DNA of 64,000 nt. Origin: Ostreococcus lucimarinus. Taxonomy: Eukaryota. The position numbers and the translations under genes were made by a program. The notes beneath the pieces are model-generated. The model was not told where the DNA came from and made no database searches. It was given only the letters and a program-made list of their open reading frames with translations. Within the stretch, counting starts at the first letter, position 1; each line of letters opens with the position of its first letter. This document shows positions 1-49,534 of this stretch, in pieces. The stretch lies in NCBI GenBank assembly GCA_000092065.1, contig CP000595.1; one strand, 5' to 3'.

Positions 1-1374
1 GGCAAAGTTCATGGCGCTGTCCACGTCCCCGCCCGAGTGCGTGGTCTTTAAAACCCACAAGTAATGTTTGAAAGAATCGATCATTTGCGGCATGTGGAAC
101 GCGGGGCCGTGGATGCCGTCCGAGCGCCAACCCGCCTTCATACCGGCCAAATCTTCTCGCGTCAAGCCGGCGTTATCCCACAAGTGCGCCCAGAAATCGT
201 CCCAGTTACCGGTGTGCAAAAAGTGCAGGTATGCCTCGCAAATCTTCACATCATCGGGCGTGGTGTTAGAGTGAAGCTTTTGATGCCACTGCGCGATGAA
301 CGGATCCTCGATTCCCGGACGATGTCCCTCTTTGATGCCGTGCGTTCGCATGATGTTCAAGATGCCCATGCGAATATCGTCGCCGTTGCCTCCTCCGCGC
401 GGTAAGAATGCGAGCGAGGCGCGCATGAGTCCGCGCGACGTGGCGTCCGGCGCCGTCGTCGCCGCGTGCGCGATGCGTCCCGCCAAGCGCTCTTGCTTGC
501 TCGCCATGTCCTTGCCCTGGTAATTGTTCCCGGCGTACCAGTGCAACTGGCGCAGCGAGCTCAGGCGCAACCACGCGTAGACGAGCGCCGCACCCTCGGG
601 CCCGATCGCCAACGCGGCGTCCAGGGCGTCGTCAACCATGCAAAATCGCGTGAACAAGTTCACGCTCCCACCCTCGTGCTCGGCGGCGCGTCGCGCCAAC
701 GATTCCGCGCCCGCCGCGCCGCCGCCGCCGCCCGCCGCGGATTCTCTCACCCTCATCTCCACGTCCCCGTCCTCCGCGTGCGCCCAAAACTCTCCGCACA
801 CGACGATCCCGACGATCGACCCAACGTTTCTCAACCCCTCGACGTCCCCTTCGCTCGCGTTCGAGCAATCCATCTCCAACGTCAGCGTCCCGCTCGCGTC
901 GAACGCGCTCCTCGACGCGATCCCGTCCCCGAAATCCCTACTCCCCGTCCTCGCCTCCAGCCCGCGCGGCGCCTTCGCCCACGACCCATCGCCATCGACC
1001 GCCCGCGTCGCCCAGTGCAGTTCGACCTCGCCTCTCGCGCACCGCTCCAGGAGCGCGTCGTCCGCCGCCCGCAGCGTCGCCGTCGTCGTCCCGTTCGCGC
1101 GCGTCCGCGTCTCCACTCGCACCGCGTGCCCCCCCGCGAGCGCGTGCGTCGTCTCGCGGACCACGTCCGGGACGTCCGCCTTTTTTTCGCGCGCGCCGGC
1201 GCCTCGTCCGACGCGCGCGCGCGTCCCGGCGTCGATCGCGCCGCGCGCCGTGGATAGCGTTCCTCGCGAAGATCGCGTCGCGCGGCGCGCCGTCGCGCGG
1301 TCGATCGTCGCGCGCGCCGCGTCCGCGCGCGCGAACGTCGCGCGCGTCGCGTCGCGCGCGAGAGAGACGCGCAT
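1..1374 (-). CDS. alpha-glucan water dikinase (GWD)-like protein, N-terminal part; gene continues past the left window edge
   Basis: Minus-strand frame is open from about 1374 to base 1 and is not in the ORF track because it has no stop in the window. Translation contains WHQKLHSNTTPDDVKICEAYLHFL and LVYAWLRLSSLRQLHWYAGNNYQ (conserved GWD central region) and a CBM45-like VELHWATRAVDGDGSWAKAP. The N-terminus MRVSLARDATRATF... is Ala/Arg/Ser/Thr-rich and resembles a transit peptide. The true start is uncertain. Confidence 0.55.
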   Translation of the reverse strand, partial: MRVSLARDATRATFARADAARATIDRATARRATRSSRGTLSTARGAIDAGTRARVGRGAGAREKKADVPDVVRETTHALAGGHAVRVETRTRANGTTTATLRAADDALLERCARGEVELHWATRAVDGDGSWAKAPRGLEARTGSRDFGDGIASRSAFDASGTLTLEMDCSNASEGDVEGLRNVGSIVGIVVCGEFWAHAEDGDVEMRVRESAAGGGGGAAGAESLARRAAEHEGGSVNLFTRFCMVDDALDAALAIGPEGAALVYAWLRLSSLRQLHWYAGNNYQGKDMASKQERLAGRIAHAATTAPDATSRGLMRASLAFLPRGGGNGDDIRMGILNIMRTHGIKEGHRPGIEDPFIAQWHQKLHSNTTPDDVKICEAYLHFLHTGNWDDFWAHLWDNAGLTREDLAGMKAGWRSDGIHGPAFHMPQMIDSFKHYLWVLKTTHSGGDVDSAMNFA

Positions 1375-1516
1375 CGCGCGCGCGCGCGTCGTCGGTCGCG
1401 GTGTGACGATTCGCTTCGACGAATCGAATCGTCAGAGCGCGACGCCGCGCCGCGCGGACGCGTCGACGCGCGGCGCGACGCGACGGCGACGCGCGCGGTC
1501 CTCCGCGGCGTTTCGC

Positions 1517-1726
1517 ATGTGCGGCGCGTGCCGCGCGCGGCGCGCGAGCGCGAGAGAGACGACGACGCGCGCGGAATTCTGCGCGCCGTGTCGCGACGGC
1601 GCGAGAGCGACGACGACGCGCGCGACGCGCGTCGCGGACGGGGCGTCGTTCGACGTCGTCGTGTGCGGCGCGGGCGCGGCGGGGACGTCGTTCGCGCGGA
1701 CGTACCTGGAGACGACGGCGCGGGGT

Positions 1727-1766
<40 letters not shown>

Positions 1767-3241
1767 CGCGCGGCGCGAGGCTGCTGCTGCTCGATCGCGG
1801 CGGATGCGCGAAGACGGTCGAGCGCGTGGAGCGCGTGACGCGGCGGGCGTCGGTGTACGGCGCGCGGGAGAGCGCGCTGGGGGCGCTGGAGGCGCTGGGG
1901 GCGCGGACGGCGACGGCGAGCGTCGCGGCGTGCGACGCCGAGTCGAAGACGTTGACGCTGGACGACGGCGCGCGCGTGCGGTACGGCGCGCTGTGCGTCG
2001 CCACGGGGGCGACGCCGCGATGTCCGCTGCCGGAGGCGAGCGATGGAGCGGTCGACGCGCACGAGGTGCGAGACGTGGAGAGCGCGGACGCGCTGGCGAG
2101 ACGGTTGAGCTCGATGACGGCGACGGCGAGCGCGGATTCGGATTCAAAGACGAAACGGATCGCGATCGCGGGGAACGGAGGGATCGCGCTCGAGCTCGTC
2201 GACGCGCTCTGTGTGCGAGGTTTGCGCGCGCGAGGGTTGGAGGCGTGCGAATTGGTGTGGTTGGTGAAACACGGCGAAGTCGGCGACGCCTTTTTCGACG
2301 TCGACGCCGCGGATTTCTTGCTGCGCGCGCTCGACGCGAGACGGCGAGACGGCGAGGCGAAAGACGACGACGGCGCGGACGTGGACTGGGACTCACCGAC
2401 GCCCGAACGCGGTGCCGGACGATCGACGAAGAAGCGCGCGCGAGGGCGCGAATCAGGCGCCGCCGCCGGTCCGGATTGGCTCGACAGATTTAGAGCGAAG
2501 AGCGCGGCGGACGACGCGCGCGCGCCTCTCAGCCGCATGAAGCTTCGCGTGCTGAAAAATGTGTGCATACGCGAAGCGCGTAAAGACGCAAACACCGGCG
2601 TCAACGTATTGACGCTGAGCGATGGGACGACGATCGAGGTGGACGCCGTCGTCGCCGCCGCGGGCGTCGAGCCGAGATGCGATTGGCTCGACGAAGTCGC
2701 CGCGCCGAGGTCGAAATCAGACGGCGGTATACTCGTCGATGCGTGCATGCGCACCGTAGGACCGTACGGCGACTCAATATTTGCCGTCGGCGACGCGTGC
2801 ACGATGTCGGCGCGCGCGTCGAACCCAGAGACGCCGTGGTTTCAAATGCGACTGTGGAGCCAGGCGGCGCAAACAGGCGCCTTCGCCGCGAAAGTCGCCG
2901 TGGGCGTCTGCGACGCCGACGCCCTCGGATTCAATTTCGAAATCTTTACCCACGTCACCAGGTTTTTCGGTCTCAAAGTCATCTTGCTCGGGCTGTACAA
3001 CGCCCAGAAGCTCGACGACGTCCCGGCGAACGAGGTGACGACGTACCAGCGCGAGTCGCTCGCCGACGCGACGTACGTGCGCGTGCTCCTCGTCCGCGGT
3101 CGCATGATGGGCGCCGTGCTCGTCGGCGACACCGATCTCGAGGAAACTTTCGAAAACCTAATCTTAGACGGCGTCGATCTATCGCGTTTCGGTCCGAGTT
3201 TACTCGATCCCGAGCTCGACTTGGAGGATTATTTCGACTGA
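1517..3241 (+). CDS. PYROXD1-like pyridine nucleotide-disulfide oxidoreductase (FAD/NAD(P)-binding), copy 1
   Basis: Rossmann motif FDVVVCGAGAAG is present. The C-terminal block WFQMRLWSQAAQTGAFAAKV...FEIFTHVTRFFGLKVILLGLYNAQ...RGRMMGAVLVGDTDLEETFENLILDGVDLS...LLDPELDLEDYFD matches the PYROXD1 C-terminal domain almost motif for motif. Start is taken at MCGACRAR. The upstream part of ORF 638..3241 is antisense to the GWD gene and is rejected. Confidence 0.75.
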
Positions 3242-3323
3242 CGCGACGCGCGAGACGAGCGAGAAACGAATGAAATCAAATGACAATCAACCCTAGACAA
3301 CTACCACCGTCCGACGCCCGCGC

Positions 3324-3674
3324 TCAGTGCGGTTTCGGCACGAACCCGTCCACCGCGAAATTCCGCGTCGCGCGCGGTAAAATCACGACGCATCCCTCCA
3401 ACGCTCCGCGCTCCAGCGTCACCTGACACCCCAACCTCGACGTCGCCGTCAACCCGTACGCCAAATCTAACATGTCGTTCTCGTCGTCGCACGCCTCCGG
3501 CAGCGTCTCGAACACTTTTTCGTCCTCGAACACGACGTGGCACGTGGAACACGCGAGCGAGCCCTCGCACGCGCCCTCGAGCTCGACGTCGTGCCGGTGC
3601 GCCGTCTCCAGCAGGTTCTCGCCAATCAATCCGCGCACCGCGCGTCGCTCACCGTCGCGCTCGACGAACGTCAC
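3324..3674 (-). pseudogene. truncated adrenodoxin-type [2Fe-2S] ferredoxin fragment (duplicate lacking N-terminus and ATG)
   Basis: Encodes the same C-terminal 116 aa as the full gene at 10442..11047, including CEGSLACSTCHVVFEDE and LGCQVTL. It starts at a GTG, the in-frame upstream sequence has no ATG, and the duplication boundary (about 3727) cuts off the presequence. Confidence 0.6.
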
Positions 3675-4283
3675 CTCGATCGAGTTCTCGGGCGTGAGTT
3701 TCGTCTTTTTGTCCGCGCCGTGCGCGACCGTGATCCCGGCTCGTCCACGTGGCGCGTACGAATAAGAATGAGAATGAGAATGCGCGGCGATCGAGCGTCT
3801 TCGTTCGCGCGGTCGCGTCCCCGCGCTCGGCCGCTCGTGCGTTCGCGCGCGTTCGCGGTCGAGTCGATCACCGGACGACGCGTTCGTTCGCGCGTCGTCG
3901 AGTGCGGCGACCGAGGGCCGTCGCGCCCGGTGATGCGATGTCCACGTGGGATCGTGGAATATCTGGCTGTGTGCGTAAACAGTGACGGGGGGCTTCTCGG
4001 ATCGACCCCGCGGCCCGTGGGGAGAGGGGCATGGTGTTGGATGGTGTGTACGCGAAACGTGTGTGCATCATACGTATATTGACCCAAAGGTATCTATCAC
4101 GTGTAAAGGTACTAATGTGTGTGTGAAATTCAATGATGGGTCATGACTCGAGAACGGGGGGGGGAGGCACACCCGGGATGCGCGCCGATTCTTATCGACA
4201 GAGGAGGACGAGGAGGACGATTGGCGCGCGCGTCGCGTTCGATGGAAAACCGATGTCGTATGACAAACAGATAAAAACGTTAT

Positions 4284-5918
4284 TTAGTGCGCGTGCCCGT
4301 GCGAGTGGCCGCCGCCGCCGCCGGCTGTGCAGTGCTTGTGGTTGAGGAGCACGAGACTGACGGCGACGACGCCGACGACGAACGTCAAGAGGCTCGCCGC
4401 GCGAAGACGAGACGTAGTGGCGCTCACCGAAACTCGCGGCATACACTCCGCGGCAGCGATTTGTAGATAGATTCCAGCGCCAAAGGCGAGCAAAAGTCCG
4501 TGCCAGAAGTCGTTGTTACTTCCAGATCCAACGCTGATGAGAACGCCGAGGATGACGCTCACGCCGGAGATGAAGTTCATGAACAGCGAGCGAAACGGCG
4601 TGAGATCGCCCTGGAAGGGATCCGTGAGTACCAAATAGTCGGCGAGCTCTTGCGCGATTTCGTGATAGACGGTCGCGGCGGTGATCGACCATCCCATGGT
4701 CTTTCCACAGTTCAGGAAACCGAATCCGATGAAGATGCCATCCACGAGGTTGTGCATGAAATCTCCGAGGATGATGCCGCTTCGAACGCGATACTTGTGC
4801 GAGTGGCACGTTTCGCAATCTTCTTGAACGCCTTTGATCGCGTTCTCCGCGTCGATCGTCTTCGTCTCGGCTAAACGAGAAGGGAACGCGATGGAGATGC
4901 CCAAATCGATGATGTACGCCACGAGAAAGCCAAAGACGGACGCGGACGCCCACCACGCGGTTTGTTGCGACTCATCCGAACCGGCGGGTTTGATCAAATG
5001 CGTGGCTTCGTACAACATCAGATAGAACGCAGCCGAAAGAAGTGCACCGGCGGCAAAGGAGTTAATGATGCAACTCACGAATTCGGGGTACGCTTTCTGC
5101 TTCTTCGCGAAGCTCGGAGAGAGAAAGATGACGCCGGAAAGCGTGACGATGTTGACGATGATCGCCGCCCCGATGGCGTCGGACCACGGTTTTGATTTCT
5201 TTGTAGTCACCGTTTCGGGAAGCGAAGCCACTGGCTCCACGTCATCCCCGTTGACATCCTTGAGATAGTGCGTATCGCGCTCGAACTCGGTGGGAACGTG
5301 CTCGGCGAAAATCGAGACGGCGGCGACGCCAGTCGTATCAATCTTAAACGACGACGTGTGCCAAGCGTTATCAAATTGAAGTTTGACGCATCCACTCCCG
5401 GGCGTCAAAACGCTGTTTCGCGTTTTAACCGTCGTGCACGCCGTCTCGAGCGCGGCCTCGCCCGCGTCCTCGCGAGCCTCGAGCTCTTCGTGTCCGGCGG
5501 CGGTTTCGGCGTAGATGACCATCTTCATGGTCGCGTCCGCGTACTGGTCCTTCACCTTTTCCGCCTGCCACACGTACGCATCGTCCGGAGTCTCAAAGAT
5601 CCCCGCCCATTCGAACGAGTGCGCGTGCGCGCCGGACGCGAGCGCGCCGCGCGCCGCGAGCGCGCTCGAGACGACCGCCGCGCCTCCGAGCGCGGCGCCC
5701 ATCCTCCATCCGCCTCCTCGTCGTCGTCGTCGTCGTCCCGCGCCCGCGGTCGCGTCTCGCGTCGTCATCGCGTCGCGCATCGTCTCGTCTATCGTCTCGT
5801 GCATCGTCTCGTTCGTCGTCGTCGTCGTCGTCGCGCGTCGTCGAGTGCGGCGACCGCGCGCGCCGGCATCGCGACGAGACGACTCGAACCGGCGCGAGGG
5901 GGGTACTTCTCGAGTCAT
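4284..5918 (-). CDS. ZIP-family metal (zinc) transporter, LIV-1-like subtype
   Basis: TM4 motif HNLVDGIFIGFGF and TM5 motif YHEIAQELADYLVL (HExxxExxD) are present. There is a His-rich C-terminal tail GGGGGHSHGHAH and a long extracellular N-domain. A probable signal peptide MGAALGGAAVVSSALAARGALASG suggests the true start is at about 5702. Confidence 0.8.
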   Translation of the reverse strand: MTREVPPSRRFESSRRDAGARGRRTRRRATTTTTTNETMHETIDETMRDAMTTRDATAGAGRRRRRRGGGWRMGAALGGAAVVSSALAARGALASGAHAHSFEWAGIFETPDDAYVWQAEKVKDQYADATMKMVIYAETAAGHEELEAREDAGEAALETACTTVKTRNSVLTPGSGCVKLQFDNAWHTSSFKIDTTGVAAVSIFAEHVPTEFERDTHYLKDVNGDDVEPVASLPETVTTKKSKPWSDAIGAAIIVNIVTLSGVIFLSPSFAKKQKAYPEFVSCIINSFAAGALLSAAFYLMLYEATHLIKPAGSDESQQTAWWASASVFGFLVAYIIDLGISIAFPSRLAETKTIDAENAIKGVQEDCETCHSHKYRVRSGIILGDFMHNLVDGIFIGFGFLNCGKTMGWSITAATVYHEIAQELADYLVLTDPFQGDLTPFRSLFMNFISGVSVILGVLISVGSGSNNDFWHGLLLAFGAGIYLQIAAAECMPRVSVSATTSRLRAASLLTFVVGVVAVSLVLLNHKHCTAGGGGGHSHGHAH

Positions 5919-5943
5919 GACTCGATATTCATGAGAACACCAT

Positions 5944-5971
5944 GTGTCGACACCTCGCGAGGTGTCGACAC
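5944..5971. promoter_or_regulatory. 28-bp composite palindrome GTGTCGACAC-CTCGCGAG-GTGTCGACAC containing two ZDRE-like sites (RTGTCGACAY)
   Basis: Read directly from the sequence. It lies in the divergent promoter between the ZIP gene (minus) and the bZIP-like gene (plus). Confidence 0.5.
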
Positions 5972-6017: not shown

Positions 6018-6680
6018 ATGACGACCGTCGGCGGCGCCGCGCGACGTGACGATCGAGGCTCGGCGTTGCCTCCGCGATGCGTCGAGATCGCGCGCGAGTC
6101 GCCGTCGGCGTCGCCGTCTCGAAGGAAAACGCCCGCGAACGATCGCGCCGTCAATCGCGCCGCCGTGCGACGGTACCGCGAGCGCAAACGAATGGACGAG
6201 AAGGAGAGAATCGAGGAGTGCGAACGGTTGCGCGGGGAGAACGAGACGTTGAGACTGGCGTTGGAGACGTCACGAGCGGAGTTGAAACATTCGAGGTGGT
6301 TGTTGCGCGTCGTCGCGTGGAAGTACGACTTAGACTTGGCGGATATTCCGACGGAGAAACCGTCGACGTCGACGATGCCGCAAGGGAGGGTGAGAGGAAG
6401 CGATGCAAACGCGGTGTTTCCCGCGGGTGGGGTCCCCGCGCGGAACGACATCGCGCGACCGTTCGCCGCGCGCGGCGTCGCCGAGACGCGGCCTCGGAAA
6501 ATTCCTCGCGCAGCCGACGACGACGCGAAACCGGCGGGCGCGCCTGATGAACTCGAGCTCAAAGATTTCTTGGAGGAATACTTCACGCACGGCGACGCGT
6601 GCCCGTGCTACGAGATCACGGACGCGGACGCGCGCGCGGCGCCGACGCGCGGCGCCGACGCGCGGCACGCGTGGTTCTAG
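6018..6680 (+). CDS. small bZIP-like protein with C-terminal His/Asp/Cys-Pro-Cys motif (paralog A)
   Basis: Basic region NRAAVRRYRERKR (N-x7-R) is followed by a Leu heptad zipper, a conserved ELKHSRWLLRVVA block, and the C-terminal FLEEYFTHGDACPCYE. Start is taken at MTTVGG; the longer ORF 5268..6680 overlaps the ZIP gene and the palindrome. Confidence 0.6.
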   Translation: MTTVGGAARRDDRGSALPPRCVEIARESPSASPSRRKTPANDRAVNRAAVRRYRERKRMDEKERIEECERLRGENETLRLALETSRAELKHSRWLLRVVAWKYDLDLADIPTEKPSTSTMPQGRVRGSDANAVFPAGGVPARNDIARPFAARGVAETRPRKIPRAADDDAKPAGAPDELELKDFLEEYFTHGDACPCYEITDADARAAPTRGADARHAWF

Positions 6681-6869
6681 GTATGACGACACATTTACGT
6701 CACACGGTGAAACGTTTTACGCTTCTAATATTATATTATAAAGTTAGTCAACCTATATAGTTACACGCACCACATGATGTCACACGTGATGTGCACACGC
6801 GTATGTATTCGTACTGTGAGTACAATAAGCCTAACATTGTGTAAAATCCCGTGCCCACGATGATCGCGC

Positions 6870-6879
6870 GTGTCGACAC
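6870..6879. promoter_or_regulatory. ZDRE-like palindrome GTGTCGACAC upstream of the COG0523 gene
   Basis: Exact 10-mer about 75 bp upstream of the MADEQDQ ATG. A CACGTG G-box at about 6783 lies in the AT-rich region just upstream. Confidence 0.45.
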
Positions 6880-6952: not shown

Positions 6953-8167
6953 ATGGCGGACGAGCAAGACCAGACCTCGCGCGTGCCGGTGACCATTCTC
7001 ACCGGATTTCTCGGTTCCGGGAAGACGACGCTCCTCAATGAAATCTTGGAATCCGAAACGCACGGATTGCGCTTCGCGGTGATTGAAAATGAATTCGGAG
7101 AGGTGGGCGTCGACGAGAGGATTCTGTCGGAGAAGGCGGACGAAGAGATCATCGAGGTCATGAACGGTTGCATCTGCTGCACGGTGCGCGGTGATCTCGT
7201 GGTGGCGCTGAAAAAGCTCTACTCGAAGATCGCGCAGTTCGACGCCGTCATCATCGAGACGACGGGTTTGGCGGATCCGGCGCCGGTGGCGCAGACGTTC
7301 TTCGTCGACGATGACATTCGAGAAAAGTTTGTGCTCGACGGAATCATCACGGTCACGGACGCGAAGCACATCCTCACGCGGCTCGATGATGAAAAACCCG
7401 AGGGTGTGGAGAATGAAGCCGCCGAACAGGTCGCTTTTGCCGATCGGATACTCCTCAACAAGACCGACTTGGTGTCCGAAGACGAACTCGAAACCATCAC
7501 GGGCCGGATCAAGCAAATTAATCCGAGCGCCGATATCTTCCGATGCCAGTATTCCAAGGTTGATCCGAAAAATTTGATCGGAATCAATTCCTTCTCGCTC
7601 GAGAAGACCTTAAAAATGGATCCCGAATTCCTCAACACGGAGGGCGAGCATGAACACGACCCAACCGTGTCTTCGACGAGCACAAAATTCTCTGGGCACC
7701 TCAACATCAATAAATTAGAACGCTGGATAGGCGAAATAATTCAAACAATGGGTGCGGACTTGTTTCGGTACAAGGGTGTTCTTTCCGTTGCGGGCATGGA
7801 TCAAAAGTTTGTTTTCCAGGGCGTCGGCATGCTTTTCTCCGGCGGCTTCGTCGACGCCAAGTGGGGAGCCGACGAGGAGCGCGAATGCCGCTTCGTCTTC
7901 ATCGGTAAAAATCTGGACAAAGACGCCCTCATCAACGGTTTCATGGATTGCAAGTGTTCCTCGAAGCTTCGCTTCAAGGTGGGCGACGCGGTTCTCGCGC
8001 AGGTGGGCGCCGCCGACAACGACGGCTACTGCCGCGGCACCGTCCGTAAGACGTGGGACTCGGGCAACCCGTACCAGATCGAACTTGAAGACGGTAAAAA
8101 GACAAAAGTGTGGGGACCCGTCGACGAAGACGAGTTCGTCAAAGCTTCGCTCAGCGCCACCGCGTAA
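6953..8167 (+). CDS. COG0523 / CobW-family GTPase (ZNG1/ZCP-like zinc metallochaperone) with extra C-terminal domain
   Basis: Walker A motif GFLGSGKTT and the metal-binding motif GCICC are present, with a CobW C-terminal domain. The extra C-terminal module is KLRFKVGDAVLAQVG...YQIELEDGKKTKVWGPVDEDEF. Start is moved to MADEQDQ because the ZDRE-like site lies inside the annotated ORF start region. Confidence 0.85.
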   Translation: MADEQDQTSRVPVTILTGFLGSGKTTLLNEILESETHGLRFAVIENEFGEVGVDERILSEKADEEIIEVMNGCICCTVRGDLVVALKKLYSKIAQFDAVIIETTGLADPAPVAQTFFVDDDIREKFVLDGIITVTDAKHILTRLDDEKPEGVENEAAEQVAFADRILLNKTDLVSEDELETITGRIKQINPSADIFRCQYSKVDPKNLIGINSFSLEKTLKMDPEFLNTEGEHEHDPTVSSTSTKFSGHLNINKLERWIGEIIQTMGADLFRYKGVLSVAGMDQKFVFQGVGMLFSGGFVDAKWGADEERECRFVFIGKNLDKDALINGFMDCKCSSKLRFKVGDAVLAQVGAADNDGYCRGTVRKTWDSGNPYQIELEDGKKTKVWGPVDEDEFVKASLSATA

Positions 8168-8315
8168 ATGTCGTTTTGTATGAAATCAAATCAAAATTTT
8201 GACCAGTCATGAACCTTCGTGTACACACTCCTCCTTTAGCGCGAACACACACGCATAGTATAGATACAAAAAGACAAGGTAAAACCCATCCAACGCACTC
8301 GCACCGGCTCGCCGG

Positions 8316-8492
8316 CTCGCCTCGTCCGACGCGCGCGCGCGTCCCGGCGTCGATCGCGCCGCGCGCCGTGGATAGCGTTCCTCGCGAAGATCGCGTCGCG
8401 CGGCGCGCCGTCGCGCGGTCGATCGTCGCGCGCGCCGCGTCCGCGCGCGCGAACGTCGCGCGCGTCGCGTCGCGCGCGAGAGAGACGCGCAT
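8316..8492 (-). pseudogene. orphan 5' fragment of the GWD-like gene (first about 60 codons) carried in duplication copy 2
   Basis: ORF 8151..8492 begins MRVSLARDATRATF..., identical to the GWD N-terminus at 1198..1374, then reads into unrelated sequence. Confidence 0.4.
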
Positions 8493-8634
8493 CGCGCGCG
8501 CGCGCGTCGTCGGTCGCGGTGTGACGATTCGCTTCGACGAATCGAATCGTCAGAGCGCGACGCCGCGCCGCGCGGACGCGTCGACGCGCGGCGCGACGCG
8601 ACGGCGACGCGCGCGGTCCTCCGCGGCGTTTCGC

Positions 8635-8844
8635 ATGTGCGGCGCGTGCCGCGCGCGGCGCGCGAGCGCGAGAGAGACGACGACGCGCGCGGAATTCTGC
8701 GCGCCGTGTCGCGACGGCGCGAGAGCGACGACGACGCGCGCGACGCGCGTCGCGGACGGGGCGTCGTTCGACGTCGTCGTGTGCGGCGCGGGCGCGGCGG
8801 GGACGTCGTTCGCGCGGACGTACCTGGAGACGACGGCGCGGGGT

Positions 8845-8884
<40 letters not shown>

Positions 8885-10359
8885 CGCGCGGCGCGAGGCT
8901 GCTGCTGCTCGATCGCGGCGGATGCGCGAAGACGGTCGAGCGCGTGGAGCGCGTGACGCGGCGGGCGTCGGTGTACGGCGCGCGGGAGGACGCGCTGGGG
9001 GCGCTGGAGGCGCTGGGGGCGCGGACGGCGACGGCGAGCGTCGCGGCGTGCGACGCCGAGTCGAAGACGTTGACGCTGGACGACGGCGCGCGCGTGCGGT
9101 ACGGCGCGCTGTGCGTCGCCACGGGGGCGACGCCGCGATGTCCACTGCCGGAGGCGAGCGATGGAGCGGTCGACGCGCACGAGGTGCGAGACGTGGAGAG
9201 CGCGGACGCGCTGGCGAGACGGTTGAGCTCGATGACGGCGACGGCGAGCGCGGATTCGGATTCAAAGACGAAACGGATCGCGATCGCGGGGAACGGAGGG
9301 ATCGCGCTCGAGCTCGTCGACGCGCTATGTGTGCGAGGTTTGCGCGCGCGAGGGTTGGAGGCGTGTGAATTGGTGTGGTTGGTGAAACACGGCGAAGTCG
9401 GCGACGCCTTTTTCGACGTCGACGCCGCGGATTTCTTGCTGCGCGCGCTCGACGCGAGACGGCGAGACGGCGAGGCGAAAGACGACGACGGCGCGGACGT
9501 GGACTGGGACTCACCGACGCCCGAACGCGGTGCCGGACGATCGACGAAGAAGCGCGCGCGAGGGCGCGAATCAGGCGCCGCCGCCGGTCCGGATTGGCTC
9601 GACAGATTTAGAGCGAAGAGCGCGGCGGACGACGCGCGCGCGCCTCTCAGCCGCATGAAGCTTCGCGTGCTGAAAAATGTGTGCATACGCGAAGCGCGTA
9701 AAGACGCAAACACCGGCGTCAACGTATTGACGCTGAGCGATGGGACGACGATCGAGGTGGACGCCGTCGTCGCCGCCGCGGGCGTCGAGCCGAGATGCGA
9801 TTGGCTCGACGAAGTCGCCGCGCCGAGGTCGAAATCAGACGGCGGTATACTCGTCGATGCGTGCATGCGCACCGTAGGACCGTACGGCGACTCAATATTT
9901 GCCGTCGGCGACGCGTGCACGATGTCGGCGCGCGCGTCGAACCCAGAGACGCCGTGGTTTCAAATGCGACTGTGGAGCCAGGCGGCGCAAACAGGCGCCT
10001 TCGCCGCGAAAGTCGCCGCGGGCGTCTGCGACGCCGACGCCCTCGGATTCAATTTCGAAATCTTTACCCACGTCACCAGGTTTTTCGGTCTCAAAGTCAT
10101 CTTGCTCGGGCTGTACAACGCCCAGAAGCTCGACGACGTCCCGGCGAACGAGGTGACGACGTACCAGCGCGAGTCGCTCGCCGACGCGACGTACGTGCGC
10201 GTGCTCCTCGTCCGCGGTCGCATGATGGGCGCCGTGCTCGTCGGCGACACCGATCTCGAGGAAACTTTCGAAAACCTAATCTTAGACGGCGTCGATCTAT
10301 CGCGTTTCGGTCCGAGTTTACTCGATCCCGAGCTCGACTTGGAGGATTATTTCGACTGA
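8635..10359 (+). CDS. PYROXD1-like oxidoreductase, copy 2
   Basis: Identical to copy 1 except for two residues. Its upstream flank is the 3' region of the COG0523 gene. Confidence 0.75.
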
Positions 10360-10441
10360 CGCGACGCGCGAGACGAGCGAGAAACGAATGAAATCAAATG
10401 ACAATCAACCCTAGACAACTACCACCGTCCGACGCCCGCGC

Positions 10442-11047
10442 TCAGTGCGGTTTCGGCACGAACCCGTCCACCGCGAAATTCCGCGTCGCGCGCGGTAAAA
10501 TCACGACGCATCCCTCCAACGCTCCGCGCTCCAGCGTCACCTGACACCCCAACCTCGACGTCGCCGTCAACCCGTACGCCAAATCTAACATGTCGTTCTC
10601 GTCGTCGCACGCCTCCGGCAGCGTCTCGAACACTTTTTCGTCCTCGAACACGACGTGGCACGTGGAACACGCGAGCGAGCCCTCGCACGCGCCCTCGAGC
10701 TCGACGTCGTGCCGGTGCGCCGTCTCCAGCAGGTTCTCGCCAATCAATCCGCGCACCGCGCGTCGCTCACCGTCGCGCTCGACGAACGTCACCTCGATCG
10801 AGTTCTCGGGCGTGAGTTTCGTCTTTTTGTCCGCGCCGTGCGCGATCCGCGGCGACGCGGAGACGCCGCGAGCGACGTAAAGCTGGGCAGGTTTCTGGGA
10901 CGCGCGCGGCGCGGCGTCCCGGGGACGCGACGCCGACGCGCGCGGGAGGGCGGTCGAGGCGAAACACGCGGTCGACGACGACGACGACGACGACGACGCG
11001 CATCGCGCGCTCGCGGCGGCGCACGCGCGCGCGAGACGGCGAAACAT
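10442..11047 (-). CDS. adrenodoxin-type [2Fe-2S] ferredoxin with N-terminal organellar presequence
   Basis: Cys ligand motifs CEGSLACSTCHV...LGCQV are present. The Ala/Ser/Arg-rich N-terminus MFRRLARACAAASARC looks like an organellar presequence. It is convergent with the oxidoreductase, with 83 bp between their stops. Confidence 0.85.
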   Translation of the reverse strand: MFRRLARACAAASARCASSSSSSSSTACFASTALPRASASRPRDAAPRASQKPAQLYVARGVSASPRIAHGADKKTKLTPENSIEVTFVERDGERRAVRGLIGENLLETAHRHDVELEGACEGSLACSTCHVVFEDEKVFETLPEACDDENDMLDLAYGLTATSRLGCQVTLERGALEGCVVILPRATRNFAVDGFVPKPH

Positions 11048-26487: not shown

Positions 26488-26699
26488 CGAATCCGTCCCT
26501 CTTATCGATGACGCGTCTTTTTCGTCGTCGCGCCGGCGTCGCGCGTTCGCGCGTCCGAAACGCCGCCCGAGCGCGTTCGACGCGCGTCCGCTCGCGAATC
26601 CGAGAGCGCGTCGCCGTCGTCGCGTCCGCGTCGCGGTGTGCGCGTCCCGAATCGCGCCGTCCCAGGCCCCTCTTCGTCGCACTTCGCCGCGCGACGCGA

Positions 26700-27194
26700 A
26701 TGCGCGCGTCGCGCGGCGACGACGCGCCGGCGCTCCCGGGACGCGCGGTCGCGGTGGACGAAGACAAAAAATCGATCGACAACGACGCGAACAAGCGCGC
26801 CGTCAAGCGCTACCGCGATCGTCAGCGCGACGCGAAGATGAAGTTGGAATCCGAAAACGCGGCGCTGCGAGTGGAGACGACGCGGTTGGCGACGGAGCTC
26901 GCGCACGCGCGATGGGTGCTCGACGCGGTGGCGTCGCGGTGCGGGATGAAGCGACGCGCGACGGGGCGCGACGCGGACGCGGCGCTGCGCCGAAGCGTCG
27001 CGCGCGTGATCCACGGCGCGGGGTGCCCGCTGGGACATCAGGGGCGGGACAGGCCGTTTCGATTGGACGCGACGGAGGCGAGGCGACGCGAGGACGAGGA
27101 CGAGGACGAGTTGGCGGCGTTTTTGAAGGAGTTTTTGGTGCACGAGGACGGGAAGTGTCCGTGCCCGGGGCGCGCGCGCGATGGGGGCGAGTAG
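26700..27194 (+). CDS. small bZIP-like protein with C-terminal Cys-Pro-Cys motif (paralog B)
   Basis: NKRAVKRYRDRQR (N-x7-R) is followed by an L-x6-L-x6-L zipper, the conserved ELAHARWVLDAVA block and FLKEFLVHEDGKCPCPG. It has the same architecture as paralog A. Confidence 0.6.
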   Translation: MRASRGDDAPALPGRAVAVDEDKKSIDNDANKRAVKRYRDRQRDAKMKLESENAALRVETTRLATELAHARWVLDAVASRCGMKRRATGRDADAALRRSVARVIHGAGCPLGHQGRDRPFRLDATEARRREDEDEDELAAFLKEFLVHEDGKCPCPGRARDGGE

Positions 27195-27675: not shown

Positions 27676-29166
27676 CTAGTGCGCGTGCTCGACGCCGAGT
27701 TGCGCGAGCGCGATGACGAGAACGCCGGCGGTGTAACACACGAACTTGTAAATGCGCATGCCGCGCGCGGGCGCTTCGTGCACGGTGTGCGTGTGCGGAG
27801 CGAGTTTATGGTCGTGACCGTGCTCGTCTTCGCACGATTGCGTTTGCGTCTCGAACTCGTCGCCGATGACTTCCACGGTACCGACGTAAATGAACGTACC
27901 GGCGGCGATGCCCTCGAGGACGGCGGAGACGGCTGGGCTGTGTGCGCTTTCCGCCGCGCACCCGATCAAGATCCCGATCGGGGTTATGAACGAAAACGCC
28001 GTCATGAAAATGAAGAGCGTCTGCGGATTCGTCATGCCGCAGCGCAAAAACGCGCACCCGATGCTGAACGCGGCCGCGGCTTTGTGCGACGCGATGGCGG
28101 TGAAAATCGCGTACACACTGTTTCGATCGCTTTGAAGCCCGAGGGAGACACCCGCGAGAGAGGCGTGCAACGCGACGCCCGCCATGAAGAGCAAAGCCGT
28201 TCTCGTCTGCGCGAAGATGGACACGTGACGACCCTTCTCGTCGTGCGCGCACGTGTCGCACGCGTCGGTCGACGCCTTGTCCACGACGACGACGACGGCC
28301 GCATCGACGTGATGTTCTTTACTTTGTCCGTGTCCGTGTCCGTGTCCGTGGCCGTGCTCTCCGTCGCCCTCGCTCTCCGTCACGTGCGAGTGCGTGTGAA
28401 ACACGACGCGTTCGACGAAGAACGCGATGAGAAATCCCAGCATGACCATGACCATGGCGAAAGGATACTCCTTCGCCGTACCGATGCGTGCCTCCGTCGC
28501 GCTCTCGAGCGCGTGCGGGACGAGGTGCACGAACCCAGACGCGAGAAACAATCCCCCGCTGAACGCGTTCATAAACTCCAACGCGCTCTGCATCTTCGGC
28601 AGCGTTCTCACGAACAGCGACGGCAACATTCCTCCCGCCAAACCTTCAAAAAACACAGCCACCATGAGACCCATCTTGAGTTTGAAATGCTTCAACCCAC
28701 CCGTCGCCGCCGCCGCGCTTTCCGCCTCGCTCGCGATGAACGTGCACGTCGACTCGCTCAGGCACCGCGCCGCCAAACTCAGCGCCGAGAGCAACTCGGT
28801 CTCGTTCAACTTTTGATCCGCGCCCGCGTACGTCGTGATCACGTCCGCCGACGACACGTTCGTCAGCGTCTCCTCCGCGCTCGCGTGCGCGTGTCCAGCG
28901 CTCGCGTGCGCGTGTCCAGCGTGCGAATCCGCGCCCGCGCCCGCGCCGCTCGTCCTCGCCGCGAACCGCTCGAACAATTCGCTCAGCTCGTGAGCGTCCA
29001 TCGTCGCGTCGTCGTTGTCGTCGTTGTACGTCTCCAAGATGTGATCCACCGGCGTCTCGTCGCCTCTCGCGACGCGCGCCATCGCGCACGCGCACGCGCA
29101 CACCGTCAGCGCCGTCGCGAATCGCGCGCGCGCCCGTCGACACCGCCGCCGGTCGTTCGCCGTCAT
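27676..29166 (-). CDS. ZIP-family metal transporter, IRT/ZRT-like subtype
   Basis: His-rich motifs DSHAGHAHASAGHAHAS and GEHGHGHGHGHGQSKEHH are present, with TM motifs LHASLAGVSLGL and SHKAAAAFSIG. The 496-aa product starts at MTANDRR; the 1118-aa ORF-track call is upstream read-through. Confidence 0.8.
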   Translation of the reverse strand: MTANDRRRCRRARARFATALTVCACACAMARVARGDETPVDHILETYNDDNDDATMDAHELSELFERFAARTSGAGAGADSHAGHAHASAGHAHASAEETLTNVSSADVITTYAGADQKLNETELLSALSLAARCLSESTCTFIASEAESAAAATGGLKHFKLKMGLMVAVFFEGLAGGMLPSLFVRTLPKMQSALEFMNAFSGGLFLASGFVHLVPHALESATEARIGTAKEYPFAMVMVMLGFLIAFFVERVVFHTHSHVTESEGDGEHGHGHGHGHGQSKEHHVDAAVVVVVDKASTDACDTCAHDEKGRHVSIFAQTRTALLFMAGVALHASLAGVSLGLQSDRNSVYAIFTAIASHKAAAAFSIGCAFLRCGMTNPQTLFIFMTAFSFITPIGILIGCAAESAHSPAVSAVLEGIAAGTFIYVGTVEVIGDEFETQTQSCEDEHGHDHKLAPHTHTVHEAPARGMRIYKFVCYTAGVLVIALAQLGVEHAH

Positions 29167-29397
29167 CTTGTCTCGCGCCGTCGCGAATCGCGCGCGCGTC
29201 GAGTCCCGGTCTCGACGCCCGCGCCCGGTTCGCCCCGGTTCGAGCGCGCGCGAACGAGCCGAAGAGGCGTCGCGAAGTGCGGCGATGCGCGCGCGTCGTG
29301 CACGTGTCGACGATTCGCGTCGTGCACGTGTCGAGGATCGTCGTACGCGACGCCCCGCGAAGCCCATCACGGATCGCGTCGCGACGCGCGTCGTAAA

Positions 29398-29497
29398 CAT
29401 GTCGACACGCATGTCGACATATTTACCCACGCGCGTGTACGCATTGAACCCCGTGATGCATCTATATACGAAAAACGTCTCGACGCACATGTCGACA
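29398..29497. promoter_or_regulatory. three ZDRE-like palindromes (ATGTCGACAC at 29398, ATGTCGACAT at 29410 and 29488) in the promoter shared by the ZIP and LHC genes
   Basis: Exact 10-mers read from the sequence. They lie about 230-330 bp upstream of both flanking start codons. Confidence 0.5.
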
Positions 29498-29565
29498 TAT
29501 TTACCCCACGCGCGTGTACGCATTGAACCCCGTGATGCATCTATATACGAAACAGATAAATGCAC
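29408..29565. repeat. about 78-bp tandem repeat (2 copies), relatively AT-rich, carrying the ZDRE-like motifs
   Basis: catgtcgacatatttaccc(c)acgcgcgtgtacgcattgaaccccgtgatgcatctatatacgaaa occurs twice. Confidence 0.6.
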
Positions 29566-35389: not shown

Positions 35390-36409
35390 TTACAACGTCG
35401 GCGCCGAGGAGGAGCGCTTTTCTAAGAACGGCGCGGTTTCGCCGAGCGTCGCGCGACGCTCGGCGAGGTGCTCGCGGACGGTGATGTTGTCTAAAGCCTT
35501 GGCGTGATTGAAGGCGACGAAACCGGCGGTGGCGACGGCGTAGCCGACGATTTCGGTGACGCTCACCTCGTCGCCGTATAAGAACATGGCGGCGCCGATG
35601 ACGGCAACGTTCTTCAATTGTGACATCGTCTTCACCATGAGCGATCCCGCGTGTTTGACGACGCCGAGGCAGACGTAATTGACGGCGAAGCCGAACGTCG
35701 CGCAAATAAAGAATAGGTACCAATACCGGGTAAACGTGGCGATATTTTCGGTGCGAAACAATTCCTCGCGCTCGAAAATCAAGCTCAACGCCATCAAAAA
35801 CACTAACGTCGCCGGGGAGAAGTAATACATCCCGTTGAACAGCGAAAACTTTTTGTTGCTGATCAAGTATTGAATCCCGACGCTCCTAAACGCCTCGGCG
35901 ATTTCCGCCGTCAGCATGCACGCCAAACCAAACATCGTCACGTGCGCCTCTCCCCACGCCGCGATGAAACATCCTATCATCACCACGCTCAACGTGGCGA
36001 TGATTCTGCCGCTCCATCGGTCTAAACCGAACGCCACCAAAGTGAAATAGCACACCACCGGCGCGAACGCCTTGAGCATCTGAATAAACGACAGCGACAA
36101 ATACGAATACGCCACGTTCGCCGCCGCGAGCGACAGCGCGGTGCAAAACCCGATCGGCAGTATGTTCGCCGTCCACTCCCTCGCGCTCAACCGGTGCGAC
36201 ATGCGCTTCGGGTCGAGTTTTATCGCCGCCGCCGCGACCCCCCAGCCGAACCAGCTCCCCAGCGAGCTCACGAACACCGGGCAGTTGAACGACGTCTCCG
36301 TGATCAGGTGCTTATTCGCCAGGATCAACACCGTGGCGACGAGCAGATACGCCACCGCGTACGCCATCGCGTACGCCGCGCCCTCCTCGCCGTACGTCGA
36401 CAGTTCCAT
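35390..36409 (-). CDS. triose-phosphate/nucleotide-sugar transporter family (DMT superfamily) protein
   Basis: 10-TM EamA-like topology. FIQMLKAFAPV and VKHAGSLMVKTMSQLKNV are typical of TPT/NST proteins. Confidence 0.8.
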   Translation of the reverse strand: MELSTYGEEGAAYAMAYAVAYLLVATVLILANKHLITETSFNCPVFVSSLGSWFGWGVAAAAIKLDPKRMSHRLSAREWTANILPIGFCTALSLAAANVAYSYLSLSFIQMLKAFAPVVCYFTLVAFGLDRWSGRIIATLSVVMIGCFIAAWGEAHVTMFGLACMLTAEIAEAFRSVGIQYLISNKKFSLFNGMYYFSPATLVFLMALSLIFEREELFRTENIATFTRYWYLFFICATFGFAVNYVCLGVVKHAGSLMVKTMSQLKNVAVIGAAMFLYGDEVSVTEIVGYAVATAGFVAFNHAKALDNITVREHLAERRATLGETAPFLEKRSSSAPTL

Positions 36410-48385: not shown

Positions 48386-49534
48386 TCACCGTTTGCGTTT
48401 CTTGTGCTCGTCGTGCGAAAGCTTGAGCGCGGCGCAAATTGTGACGTACGCGCCCTCCGGGATATCGCGGGCGATTTCGTCCAGCGCCGACATCGCGTCG
48501 TCGAGCTTTGATTCTTCCGCGTCTTTCAGCGTGAGCATGTACGTCAGGCACGCGGTAAAGTGCAATCTACGCGCGGCGTCGATGCACTGGTCTTTGTCCC
48601 AAGGACACCCGTGCTCGTGCGCGTACTTCAAACACTCCAACTGTCCATCATAGGCGGCATCACGGCACGTATCCTCGTTCCAAGGACACCCGCGCTCGTG
48701 CGCGTACTTCAAACACTCCAAGCTTCCACTCCCGGCGGCACGTGCGCACGTCTCCTCGTGCCAAGGACACCCGTTCTCGTGCGCGTACTTCAAACACTCC
48801 AAATGTCCATTCAAGGCGGCAAATGAGCACGTCCTCTCGTTCCAAGGACATCCGTGCTCGCGCGCGTACTTCAAACACTCCAAATGTCCATTCGAGGCGG
48901 CAACCGCGCACGTTTTCTCGTCCCAAGGACACCCGCGCTCGTGCAAGTACTTCAAACACTCCAACTGTCCTTTCCAGGCGGCAGAGATGCACGTCTCTTC
49001 GTCCCAATCACACCCTTGCTCGTGCGCGTACTTCAAACACTCCAACTGTCCATTCGAAGCGGCATTATTGCACGTCCTCAGGTTCCAATCGCATCCGTGC
49101 TCGCGCGCGTACTTCAAACACTCCAACTGTCCATGCGAAGCGGCAGCGTTGCACGTCCCTTTGTCCCAAGGACACCCGTGCTCGTGCGCGTACTTCAAAC
49201 ACTCCAAATGTCCACTATAGGCGGCACATGCGCACGTATCCTCGTGCCAAGGACACCCGTTCTCGTGCGCGTACTTCAAACACTCCAAATGTCCATTCGA
49301 GGCGGCAGACTTGCACGTCCAAGCGTTCCAACGACACCCGCGCTCGCGCAAGTACTTTAAACATTCCAAATGTCCAGTCGAAGCGGCTTCCGCGCAGTCC
49401 GGCGCCGTGAACGCGAGCGCGAGCAAGCGCATATAACTTTCATGTCCATTCAAAGCGGCTTCCGCGATGTGCGACGCCGCGAACGCGCGCTCGCGCAAGC
49501 GCGCCAACGCGGTCGCCTCCTCGCTCGACGCCAT
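48386..49534 (-). CDS. protein with 10 tandem 27-aa ankyrin-like repeats
   Basis: Repeat unit A(S/A)NGHLECLKYAHE(N/H)GCPW(D/N)ExTCxxA. The helix part matches the ANK consensus AAxNGHLEVVKLL. Start is taken at MASSEEAT. Confidence 0.7.
   Translation of the reverse strand: MASSEEATALARLRERAFAASHIAEAALNGHESYMRLLALAFTAPDCAEAASTGHLECLKYLRERGCRWNAWTCKSAASNGHLECLKYAHENGCPWHEDTCACAAYSGHLECLKYAHEHGCPWDKGTCNAAASHGQLECLKYAREHGCDWNLRTCNNAASNGQLECLKYAHEQGCDWDEETCISAAWKGQLECLKYLHERGCPWDEKTCAVAASNGHLECLKYAREHGCPWNERTCSFAALNGHLECLKYAHENGCPWHEETCARAAGSGSLECLKYAHERGCPWNEDTCRDAAYDGQLECLKYAHEHGCPWDKDQCIDAARRLHFTACLTYMLTLKDAEESKLDDAMSALDEIARDIPEGAYVTICAALKLSHDEHKKRKR
48540..49365. repeat. 81-bp in-frame tandem DNA repeat (about 10 units) encoding the ankyrin-like array
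   Basis: The periodicity is visible in both sense and antisense translations (RTSNTPNVHSRRQ recurs every 27 aa in ORF 48742..49410). Confidence 0.7.

Follow-up and report, generated by a model that had tools for sequence, protein, structure and literature searches.

Between divergent genes for a ZIP-family metal transporter (ZIP1) and a bZIP protein (bZIP-A), a 64-kb stretch of Ostreococcus lucimarinus DNA (64,000 nt of contig CP000595.1, assembly GCA_000092065.1; hereafter the window) carries a 28-nt perfect palindrome built from two copies of a decamer that matches the ZDRE, or zinc deficiency response element, of land plants. Six such decamers occur in the window, each beside a gene of the zinc-homeostasis type, and strict copies recur in the orthologous spacer of every Ostreococcus lineage from which we recovered the locus. 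We consider it very likely that these decamers function as cis-elements in a regulon of zinc genes. The full mechanism that we propose, in which the 28-mer is a pair of ZDRE-type sites for the neighbouring bZIP proteins and drives a zinc-deficiency regulon, is in our judgement probable.

ZDRE-type decamers in the window

The 28-mer occupies positions 5944-5971 and reads GTGTCGACAC-CTCGCGAG-GTGTCGACAC. It is identical to its reverse complement, the symmetry ending at these 28 nt, and the two decamers and the 8-bp spacer between them are also palindromic one by one. An earlier note, made from the letters of this stretch alone, had described such a composite palindrome, and inspection of the sequence and a reverse-complement check bear it out. 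Each decamer consists of the abutting half-sites RTGTC and GACAY and, as the same note had proposed, fits the plant ZDRE consensus RTGTCGACAY, which is bound by Arabidopsis bZIP19 and bZIP23 (Assuncao et al. 2010, as reviewed in PMC9643250). The 28-mer begins 242 nt from the ZIP1 ATG and ends 46 nt from that of bZIP-A.

A search of the 64 kb for RTGTCGACAY returned six matches (three of the form GTGTCGACAC, one ATGTCGACAC and two ATGTCGACAT), and the 8-mer core TGTCGACA was found at the same six positions and nowhere else. All six lie in three intergenic spacers: that between ZIP1 and bZIP-A, that between bZIP-A and a COG0523-family GTPase gene, and that upstream of a second ZIP gene, ZIP2. 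Among the zinc-homeostasis-type genes of the window, only the bZIP-A paralogue bZIP-B has no motif upstream, and each copy of the motif adjoins a gene of this type; no further ZIP, COG0523 or bZIP-A/B paralogues were found in the 64 kb. The third exact copy, upstream of the COG0523 gene, and the three sites upstream of ZIP2 go beyond the earlier note. The sites, to which no strand is assigned, are as follows:

5910..5925: second palindrome TCGAGTCATGACTCGA with core GAGTCATGACTC, 18 nt upstream of the ZDRE pair; single occurrence in the window
5944..5953: ZDRE-type decamer 1, GTGTCGACAC, from the sequence; core invariant in the seven-lineage alignment described below
5954..5961: 8-bp spacer CTCGCGAG, palindromic in O. 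lucimarinus alone; differs in the orthologous loci L008, L011 and L012
5962..5971: ZDRE-type decamer 2, GTGTCGACAC, from the sequence and the alignment; 46 nt upstream of the bZIP-A ATG
6683..6692: ZDRE variant ATGACGACAC (RTGACGACAY), 3 nt past the bZIP-A stop codon; the sole such variant in the window
6870..6879: ZDRE-type decamer 3, GTGTCGACAC, at -83 to -74 of the COG0523 ATG in the 272-bp bZIP-A/COG0523 spacer
29399..29408: ZDRE-type decamer 4, ATGTCGACAC, in the divergent spacer between ZIP2 and an LHC-like gene
29411..29420: ZDRE-type decamer 5, ATGTCGACAT, 12 bp from decamer 4
29489..29498: ZDRE-type decamer 6, ATGTCGACAT, lying within the second unit of a tandem duplication of 79 bp (29395-29552)

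The number and grouping of the sites are not those of a random sequence of the same composition. In 300 dinucleotide-preserving shuffles of the window, RTGTCGACAY occurred 0.4 times on average and at most three times, and two sites no more than 100 bp apart were seen in none of the 300. The longest perfect palindrome per shuffle had a mean length of 19.5 nt and reached 26 nt at most (100 shuffles), compared with 28 nt observed; since the window holds another 28-nt perfect palindrome at 35439-35466 (TCGCCGAGCGTCGCGCGACGCTCGGCGA), a CG-rich sequence with no relation to the ZDRE, length by itself is unusual only to a moderate degree. The strong signal is the identity of the motif together with its clustering and location, rather than the length of the palindrome. 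In land plants the targets that define the system are ZIP genes with multiple ZDREs (PMC9643250), and at the level of sequence the window sites agree with ZDREs in their consensus, in their multi-copy location and enrichment at ZIP promoters and in their conservation at orthologous loci.

The ZIP2 spacer also holds a 24-bp tandem duplication, CGCGTCGTGCACGTGTCGACGATT, at 29292-29338, about 60-100 nt from decamers 4-6, which includes the ZDRE-like half matches GTGTCGACGA and GTGTCGAGGA.

Conservation of the sites among Ostreococcus lineages

Through homologues of bZIP-A and the contigs that carry them, we reached the orthologous loci of O. tauri (L007, GCA_000214015.2) and of uncultured Ostreococcus (L008, L009/L010, L011, L012/L013 and L014). 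The bZIP proteins encoded there are 50-73% identical to bZIP-A, and the gene order ZIP(-)/bZIP(+)/COG0523(+) is kept in every sufficiently long contig, that of O. tauri included, except L008, where an ankyrin-repeat gene takes the place of COG0523. The earlier note had suggested that absence of the element from orthologous promoters would speak against it. We found strict ZDREs in the ZIP-bZIP spacer of each recovered locus, that is, in O. tauri and in five other Ostreococcus lineages.

The arrangement of the sites differs among these lineages. Paired decamers at 18-bp spacing are present in the window, L008, L011 and L012; the spacer of O. tauri holds three decamers at 12-bp spacing and that of L009 five, and the short contig L014 has one strict decamer beside two decayed ones. 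In the four lineages with paired decamers the intervening 8 bp read CTCGCGAG, CCTCCGCG, CTTCCGGA and CCGCCGAA. Because this spacer is species-specific, the perfect 28-mer dyad is not conserved and belongs to O. lucimarinus; the conserved unit is the multi-copy decamer, with a spacing of 18 or 12 bp depending on the clade. When the spacers of all seven lineages were aligned, the invariant columns were essentially the two TGTCGACA cores, an upstream block with GAGTCATGACTC was partly conserved, and the remainder had diverged. The GAGTCATGACTC palindrome is kept in L008, L011, L012, L014 and O. tauri (in the form GAGTCGTGACTC), together with a GAACCG...GGGGG block, and may be bound by another factor or act as an element of the core promoter.

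Across seven non-redundant loci (128 kb), that of O. tauri among them, 26 of the 27 strict sites fall within the 5.6 kb (4.4%) of spacer that flanks these zinc-homeostasis-type genes. The nominal P-value of this enrichment is inflated, because the loci were found via their bZIP and COG0523 genes and sites in one cluster depend on each other, yet the pattern of the sites is unambiguous. Between bZIP and COG0523, strict sites are present in the window and L011, and the variant RTGACGACAY in O. tauri and L009; this T-to-A variant has been described for land plants (PMC9643250). In a more distant lineage, L015, the synteny of bZIP-B, ZIP2 and the LHC-like gene is the same, and the ZIP2 spacer contains ATGTCGACAC, the sole strict match in 16.9 kb, and a second TGTCGACA core.

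The distance from the sites to the bZIP-A ATG ranges from 35 to 76 nt across lineages. Where gene callers read through the element, it is translated as VDT, VST or MST depending on the lineage; since the frame through it differs, the constraint is on the DNA and not on a peptide. A coding-sequence reading of the element could accordingly be dismissed, and the NCBI gene model of O. tauri starts 76 nt downstream of the sites. A metagenome scan for the paired-core pattern TGTCGACAYN{2,8}RTGTCGACA gave at least 120 matches. Almost all of the matches listed came from unrelated soil, gut and bacterial contigs, so paired cores also occur elsewhere by chance; the only Ostreococcus sequences among those listed were L030 (ZIP2) and L050 (ZIP1-bZIP-COG0523).

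Several further observations concern the locus as a whole. In the window the ZIP1-bZIP-COG0523 cassette lies between 2.5-kb direct repeats (1191-3730 and 8307-10849) that are 99.6% identical and encode an oxidoreductase-like protein and a 2Fe-2S ferredoxin. On the metagenome scaffolds L003 and L006 the cassette and 1.9 kb of the repeat form tandem arrays of at least 2-3 copies, and on L001 and L004, as in L008, the cassette stands in another context (S26e, DnaJ). Copies of the cassette differ by 3-7%, and all of them keep the three exact decamers. This suggests that the copy number of the zinc-uptake cassette varies in natural populations, with assembly artefacts as a possible contributor. L009, a lineage related to O. 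tauri, has an extra ZIP gene with EF-hand matches after COG0523 (L009:8929-10796), and the variant ATGACGACAT lies about 100 nt upstream of its start. Elsewhere in the window, a self-comparison revealed a tandem array at 48581-49500 with a period of about 81 bp and copies that are 80-86% identical.

The bZIP proteins and the proposed zinc circuit

Profile matches agree with the earlier note's description of the genes on either side of the palindrome as ZIP and bZIP-like (Pfam Zip and bZIP_2, respectively). The genes of zinc-homeostasis type in the window are:

4284..5702, minus strand: ZIP1, predicted ZIP-family metal transporter of 472 aa (PF02535, Pfam Zip, E 2.3e-21)
6018..6680, plus strand: bZIP-A, 220 aa (PF07716, bZIP_2, 29.3 bits against a cutoff of 22.3)
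6953..8167, plus strand: COG0523/CobW-family G3E GTPase, 404 aa (PF02492, cobW, E 2.1e-61; PF07683, CobW_C, E 9.2e-23)
26508..27194, plus strand: bZIP-B, paralogue of bZIP-A, with basic region NKRAVKRYRDRQR and C-terminal motif FLKEFLVHEDGKCPCPG; start codon uncertain
27676..29166, minus strand: ZIP2, second ZIP-family transporter, with a His-rich loop; alternative start codon at 29082

ZIP1, which is divergent from bZIP-A, has an extra N-terminal domain and a His-rich C-terminal tail. The COG0523 protein is identical to XP_001421634.1 (O. lucimarinus CCE9901), and its CxCC motif reads GCICC. bZIP-B and ZIP2 are convergent, tail-to-tail neighbours; ZIP2 shares its upstream spacer with the LHC-like gene, the L015 orthologue of ZIP2 matches PF02535, and a member of the ZIP2 cluster is named 'zinc transporter 1/2/3' by JGI. 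The protein cluster of bZIP-A has 186 members, and none of 40 of them is an NCBI or UniProt entry, in contrast to the COG0523 neighbour with its NCBI accession; the O. lucimarinus reference may thus lack an annotation for this gene. A published survey examined O. lucimarinus and Chlamydomonas, found no F-bZIPs there and placed the origin of the system in land plants (Castro et al. 2017, PMC5476651), and a gap in the annotation could explain why no F-type bZIP was seen in O. lucimarinus.

For comparison we assembled 120 F-bZIPs of land plants, which the source databases call bZIP19 or bZIP23, with an Arabidopsis bZIP19 sequence as query (92% identical to its best match). All 120 share the basic-region signature N-x2-AV-x2-YR with all Ostreococcus bZIP-A and bZIP-B proteins; the basic region of bZIP-A is NRAAVRRYRERKR and that of the land-plant proteins GNREAVRKYREKKK. 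In a profile-profile comparison (hhalign), the Ostreococcus proteins matched the F-bZIPs with a probability of 96% (E 4.7e-9) over 84 columns that extend past the zipper. The conserved C-terminal motif of bZIP-A is FLEEYFTHGDACPC, and bZIP-A and bZIP-B have in common a His that does not vary at the zipper end (H91) and, at the C terminus, the motif F-L-x-x-[YF]-[FL]-[TV]-H-x-[DE]-x(1,2)-C-P-C. AlphaFold2 was confident only for the bZIP helix and for a helix formed by the C-terminal motif, the tail of bZIP-A being otherwise disordered. H91 and the C-terminal His/Cys motif could plausibly make up an alternative zinc-sensing module.

The C-terminal motif recurs in related forms (bZIP-A and bZIP-B of the window; proteins P0210, P0213, P0218 and P0242). 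B-type proteins add AHGxGCPLG...GPFRL, and another algal bZIP, P0242, repeats a similar H/C-P-L...GPFRL module; the shared motif is possibly a metal-binding module of algal bZIPs that has yet to be described. A eukaryotic protein of 762 aa, P0214 (L018:8001-10289, contig GC 0.62), contains a pair of F-type basic regions, GNRAAVRRYREKKKA and GNREAVRRYREKKKA, which differ from the plant F-bZIP sequence GNREAVRKYREKKKA at two positions and one position, respectively, and its Cys/His-rich N-terminal stretches CTHFGG, HTVTCGHLAHGHACH, CVHAHHTC and CWHVHRI recall the plant zinc-sensor motif. We found no ZDRE on its 11-kb contig, and a search for relatives returned P0214 alone; an F-like bZIP, P0247, likewise had no ZDRE nearby on its contigs.

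In the mechanism that we propose, each palindromic decamer would receive one bZIP dimer, either a bZIP-A homodimer or bZIP-A with bZIP-B, and two or three decamers packed at 12 or 18 bp would recruit bZIP-A, possibly together with bZIP-B. The members of the regulon would be ZIP1, the COG0523 zinc-chaperone-type GTPase, ZIP2 and bZIP-A itself, and the presence of bZIP-A among the genes with decamers implies autoregulation. When zinc is low, the factor would bind its sites and switch the target genes on, as bZIP19/23 suggest by analogy (PMC9643250). When zinc is sufficient, the factor would be switched off by zinc binding to H91, H191, C195 and C197, residues that fall at the zipper end and in the C-terminal FLxxYFTHxDxCPC helix. 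A single element pair is also predicted to serve both divergent genes.

A number of points weigh against this mechanism. Binding to the decamers, the protein responsible for it, the direction of regulation, the response to zinc, autoregulation and the sensor residues are all predicted. None of the Ostreococcus bZIP-A/B sequences has the N-terminal Cys/His zinc-sensor motif, which defines the F-bZIPs and does not vary in the alignment of the plant proteins. An exhaustive HMMER search of 1.84 billion representatives returned, outside Ostreococcus, mainly ATF4-like bZIPs with the signature N-x2-AA-x2-YR, which ranked above the land-plant F-bZIPs. Mean ungapped domain scores were similar for the F-bZIP and ATF4-like sets, the latter having been pre-selected as top matches. 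Because the ATF4-like proteins rank higher and the domain scores do not separate the two sets, common descent with the F-bZIPs is unproven and convergence is possible. We accordingly call the Ostreococcus proteins F-like in what their sequences predict to be DNA-contact residues, and not F-bZIPs, since they have the basic-region signature and lack the zinc-sensor motif. In addition, the pair lies so near the bZIP-A ATG that it is possibly within the 5' untranslated region (UTR), a position with which repression is as compatible as activation. The earlier note had seen in the dyad the geometry expected for cooperative binding of two bZIP dimers; the 28-mer dyad stands in O. lucimarinus, but the change from 18-bp to 12-bp spacing between clades argues against one fixed cooperative geometry. 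The inflated enrichment P-value belongs with these points.

Three other accounts of the sites compete with that mechanism. If the decamers are real cis-sites of the zinc-gene cluster, they might still be read by an unrelated factor, the likeness to ZDREs and the neighbouring bZIP gene being coincidental or convergent. Such an account fits with a bZIP-decamer interaction that is a prediction, with bZIPs that have no F-type sensor motif and are closest by HMMER to ATF4-like proteins outside the genus, and with the conserved GAGTCATGACTC palindrome in the same spacer, which could be the true site of the bZIP. Yet a 10-bp palindrome of abutting half-sites is the typical form of a bZIP dimer site, and the five specificity positions of the basic region are identical to those of the sole bZIP group known to bind the ZDRE sequence (PMC9643250). 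The bZIP gene is, moreover, tightly linked to the sites in all lineages, and the second paralogue, bZIP-B, adjoins the second ZIP gene. We regard an unrelated reader as unlikely.

A role in nucleic acid structure, as an RNA hairpin in the 5' UTR of bZIP-A or a DNA cruciform that affects translation, stability or recombination, seems very improbable to us. The decamer pair is possibly transcribed, the site-bearing cassette has been duplicated and rearranged in populations, and predicted folds are stable for the 44-nt region with the 28-mer (-16 kcal/mol, z = -4.8) and for the O. tauri triple (-19.7 kcal/mol, z = -4.6); the orthologous L012 pair, however, folds weakly (z = -1.5), the single COG0523 site has no fold (z = +1.1) and the sites stand upstream of genes on both strands. 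Structure would also tolerate compensatory change, yet the TGTCGACA core is constant in four promoters and in all lineages while the loop is free. A hairpin or cruciform as the conserved feature was rejected on this ground, the core being kept in each copy and the loop or spacer variable. The idea of a palindrome that has no regulatory function, whether it arose by chance, through base composition or as the remnant of a repeat or transposon, can appeal to a GC- and CG-rich genome with other long palindromes (the 28-mer at 35439) and to the paired cores in unrelated metagenome sequences. It is close to refuted by conservation: the sites are kept across lineages while the surrounding spacer has diverged. 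Six sites against 0.4 expected, pairs in none of 300 shuffles and a location exclusively beside zinc genes also oppose it, and the sole repeat involved is the local 79-bp tandem duplication in the ZIP2 spacer.

Relation to known zinc-regulatory systems

The proposed bZIP-ZDRE circuit bears on where zinc regulation of this kind arose. A 2022 review repeats both the absence of F-bZIPs from green algae and the land-plant origin (PMC9643250), and in the literature that we searched, mostly outside subscription journals, we found no prior description of a ZDRE, of TGTCGACA or of an F-bZIP in any alga, and no expression study of Ostreococcus under zinc limitation. Tentatively, and without favouring it outright, we suggest that the ZDRE/bZIP circuit might already have existed in the chlorophyte-streptophyte ancestor, Ostreococcus retaining a minimal, clustered and autoregulated regulon with zinc sensing by C-terminal His/Cys residues. 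If that were true, the long-unknown zinc regulator of green algae would be identified. Either the origin of the circuit moves back by several hundred million years or the convergence is striking, and a different zinc-sensing module may be involved. The Ostreococcus bZIP and the ZDRE are a concrete candidate for an algal zinc regulator and its operator. O. tauri has been reported to be transformable with luciferase reporters. Surface oceans contain little zinc, and Ostreococcus is a primary producer that occurs in abundance; both the regulon and the variable copy number of its cassette in metagenomes may therefore matter ecologically and could mark zinc stress in situ.

The Ostreococcus sites resemble land-plant ZDREs in the 10-bp consensus and the RTGACGACAY variant, in their multiple copies at ZIP genes and in the presence of a bZIP with the same signature in the genome. 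They differ from them in belonging to a chlorophyte (Mamiellales), in being packed at 12 or 18 bp centre-to-centre and in having the regulator gene within the target cluster, with sites in its own upstream region. The Ostreococcus regulon also includes COG0523, which we did not find as an F-bZIP target in PMC9643250 or PMC5476651, and its binding and zinc response are predicted from sequence. Like the F-group proteins bZIP19/23/24, the Ostreococcus bZIPs have a bZIP_2-type domain, a similar basic region (NR-AVR-YRE-K- against GNREAVRKYREKKK) and a profile match past the zipper. In contrast to them, they lack an N-terminal CxHxHxC / HxHxCxHxH motif and have instead the zipper-end His and, near the C terminus, an amphipathic helix with H-x-D-x-C-P-C after it; they are also shorter (160-260 aa), and ATF4-like bZIPs score similarly.

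In Chlamydomonas, COG0523 genes are induced by zinc deficiency (Haas et al. 2009, PMC2770081), and the zinc-deficiency regulon comprises the same gene classes as the one proposed for Ostreococcus, ZRT/ZIP transporters and COG0523 (ZCP1/ZCP2). The zinc sensor, regulators and cis-element were reported there as unknown (PMC2770081), whereas the Ostreococcus genes, known from sequence, are clustered with a candidate regulator and an explicit motif. Bacterial Zur, with its boxes at znuABC, COG0523 and zinc-independent paralogues, offers a likeness in logic only: a palindromic operator is common to zinc-uptake and COG0523 genes and the regulator is often linked, but Zur is a prokaryotic protein of the Fur family rather than a bZIP and represses with zinc as co-repressor. 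Set beside these systems, what is new in Ostreococcus is probably the plant ZDRE logic in a chlorophyte, in the form of a clustered and probably autoregulated regulon with a regulator of different architecture.

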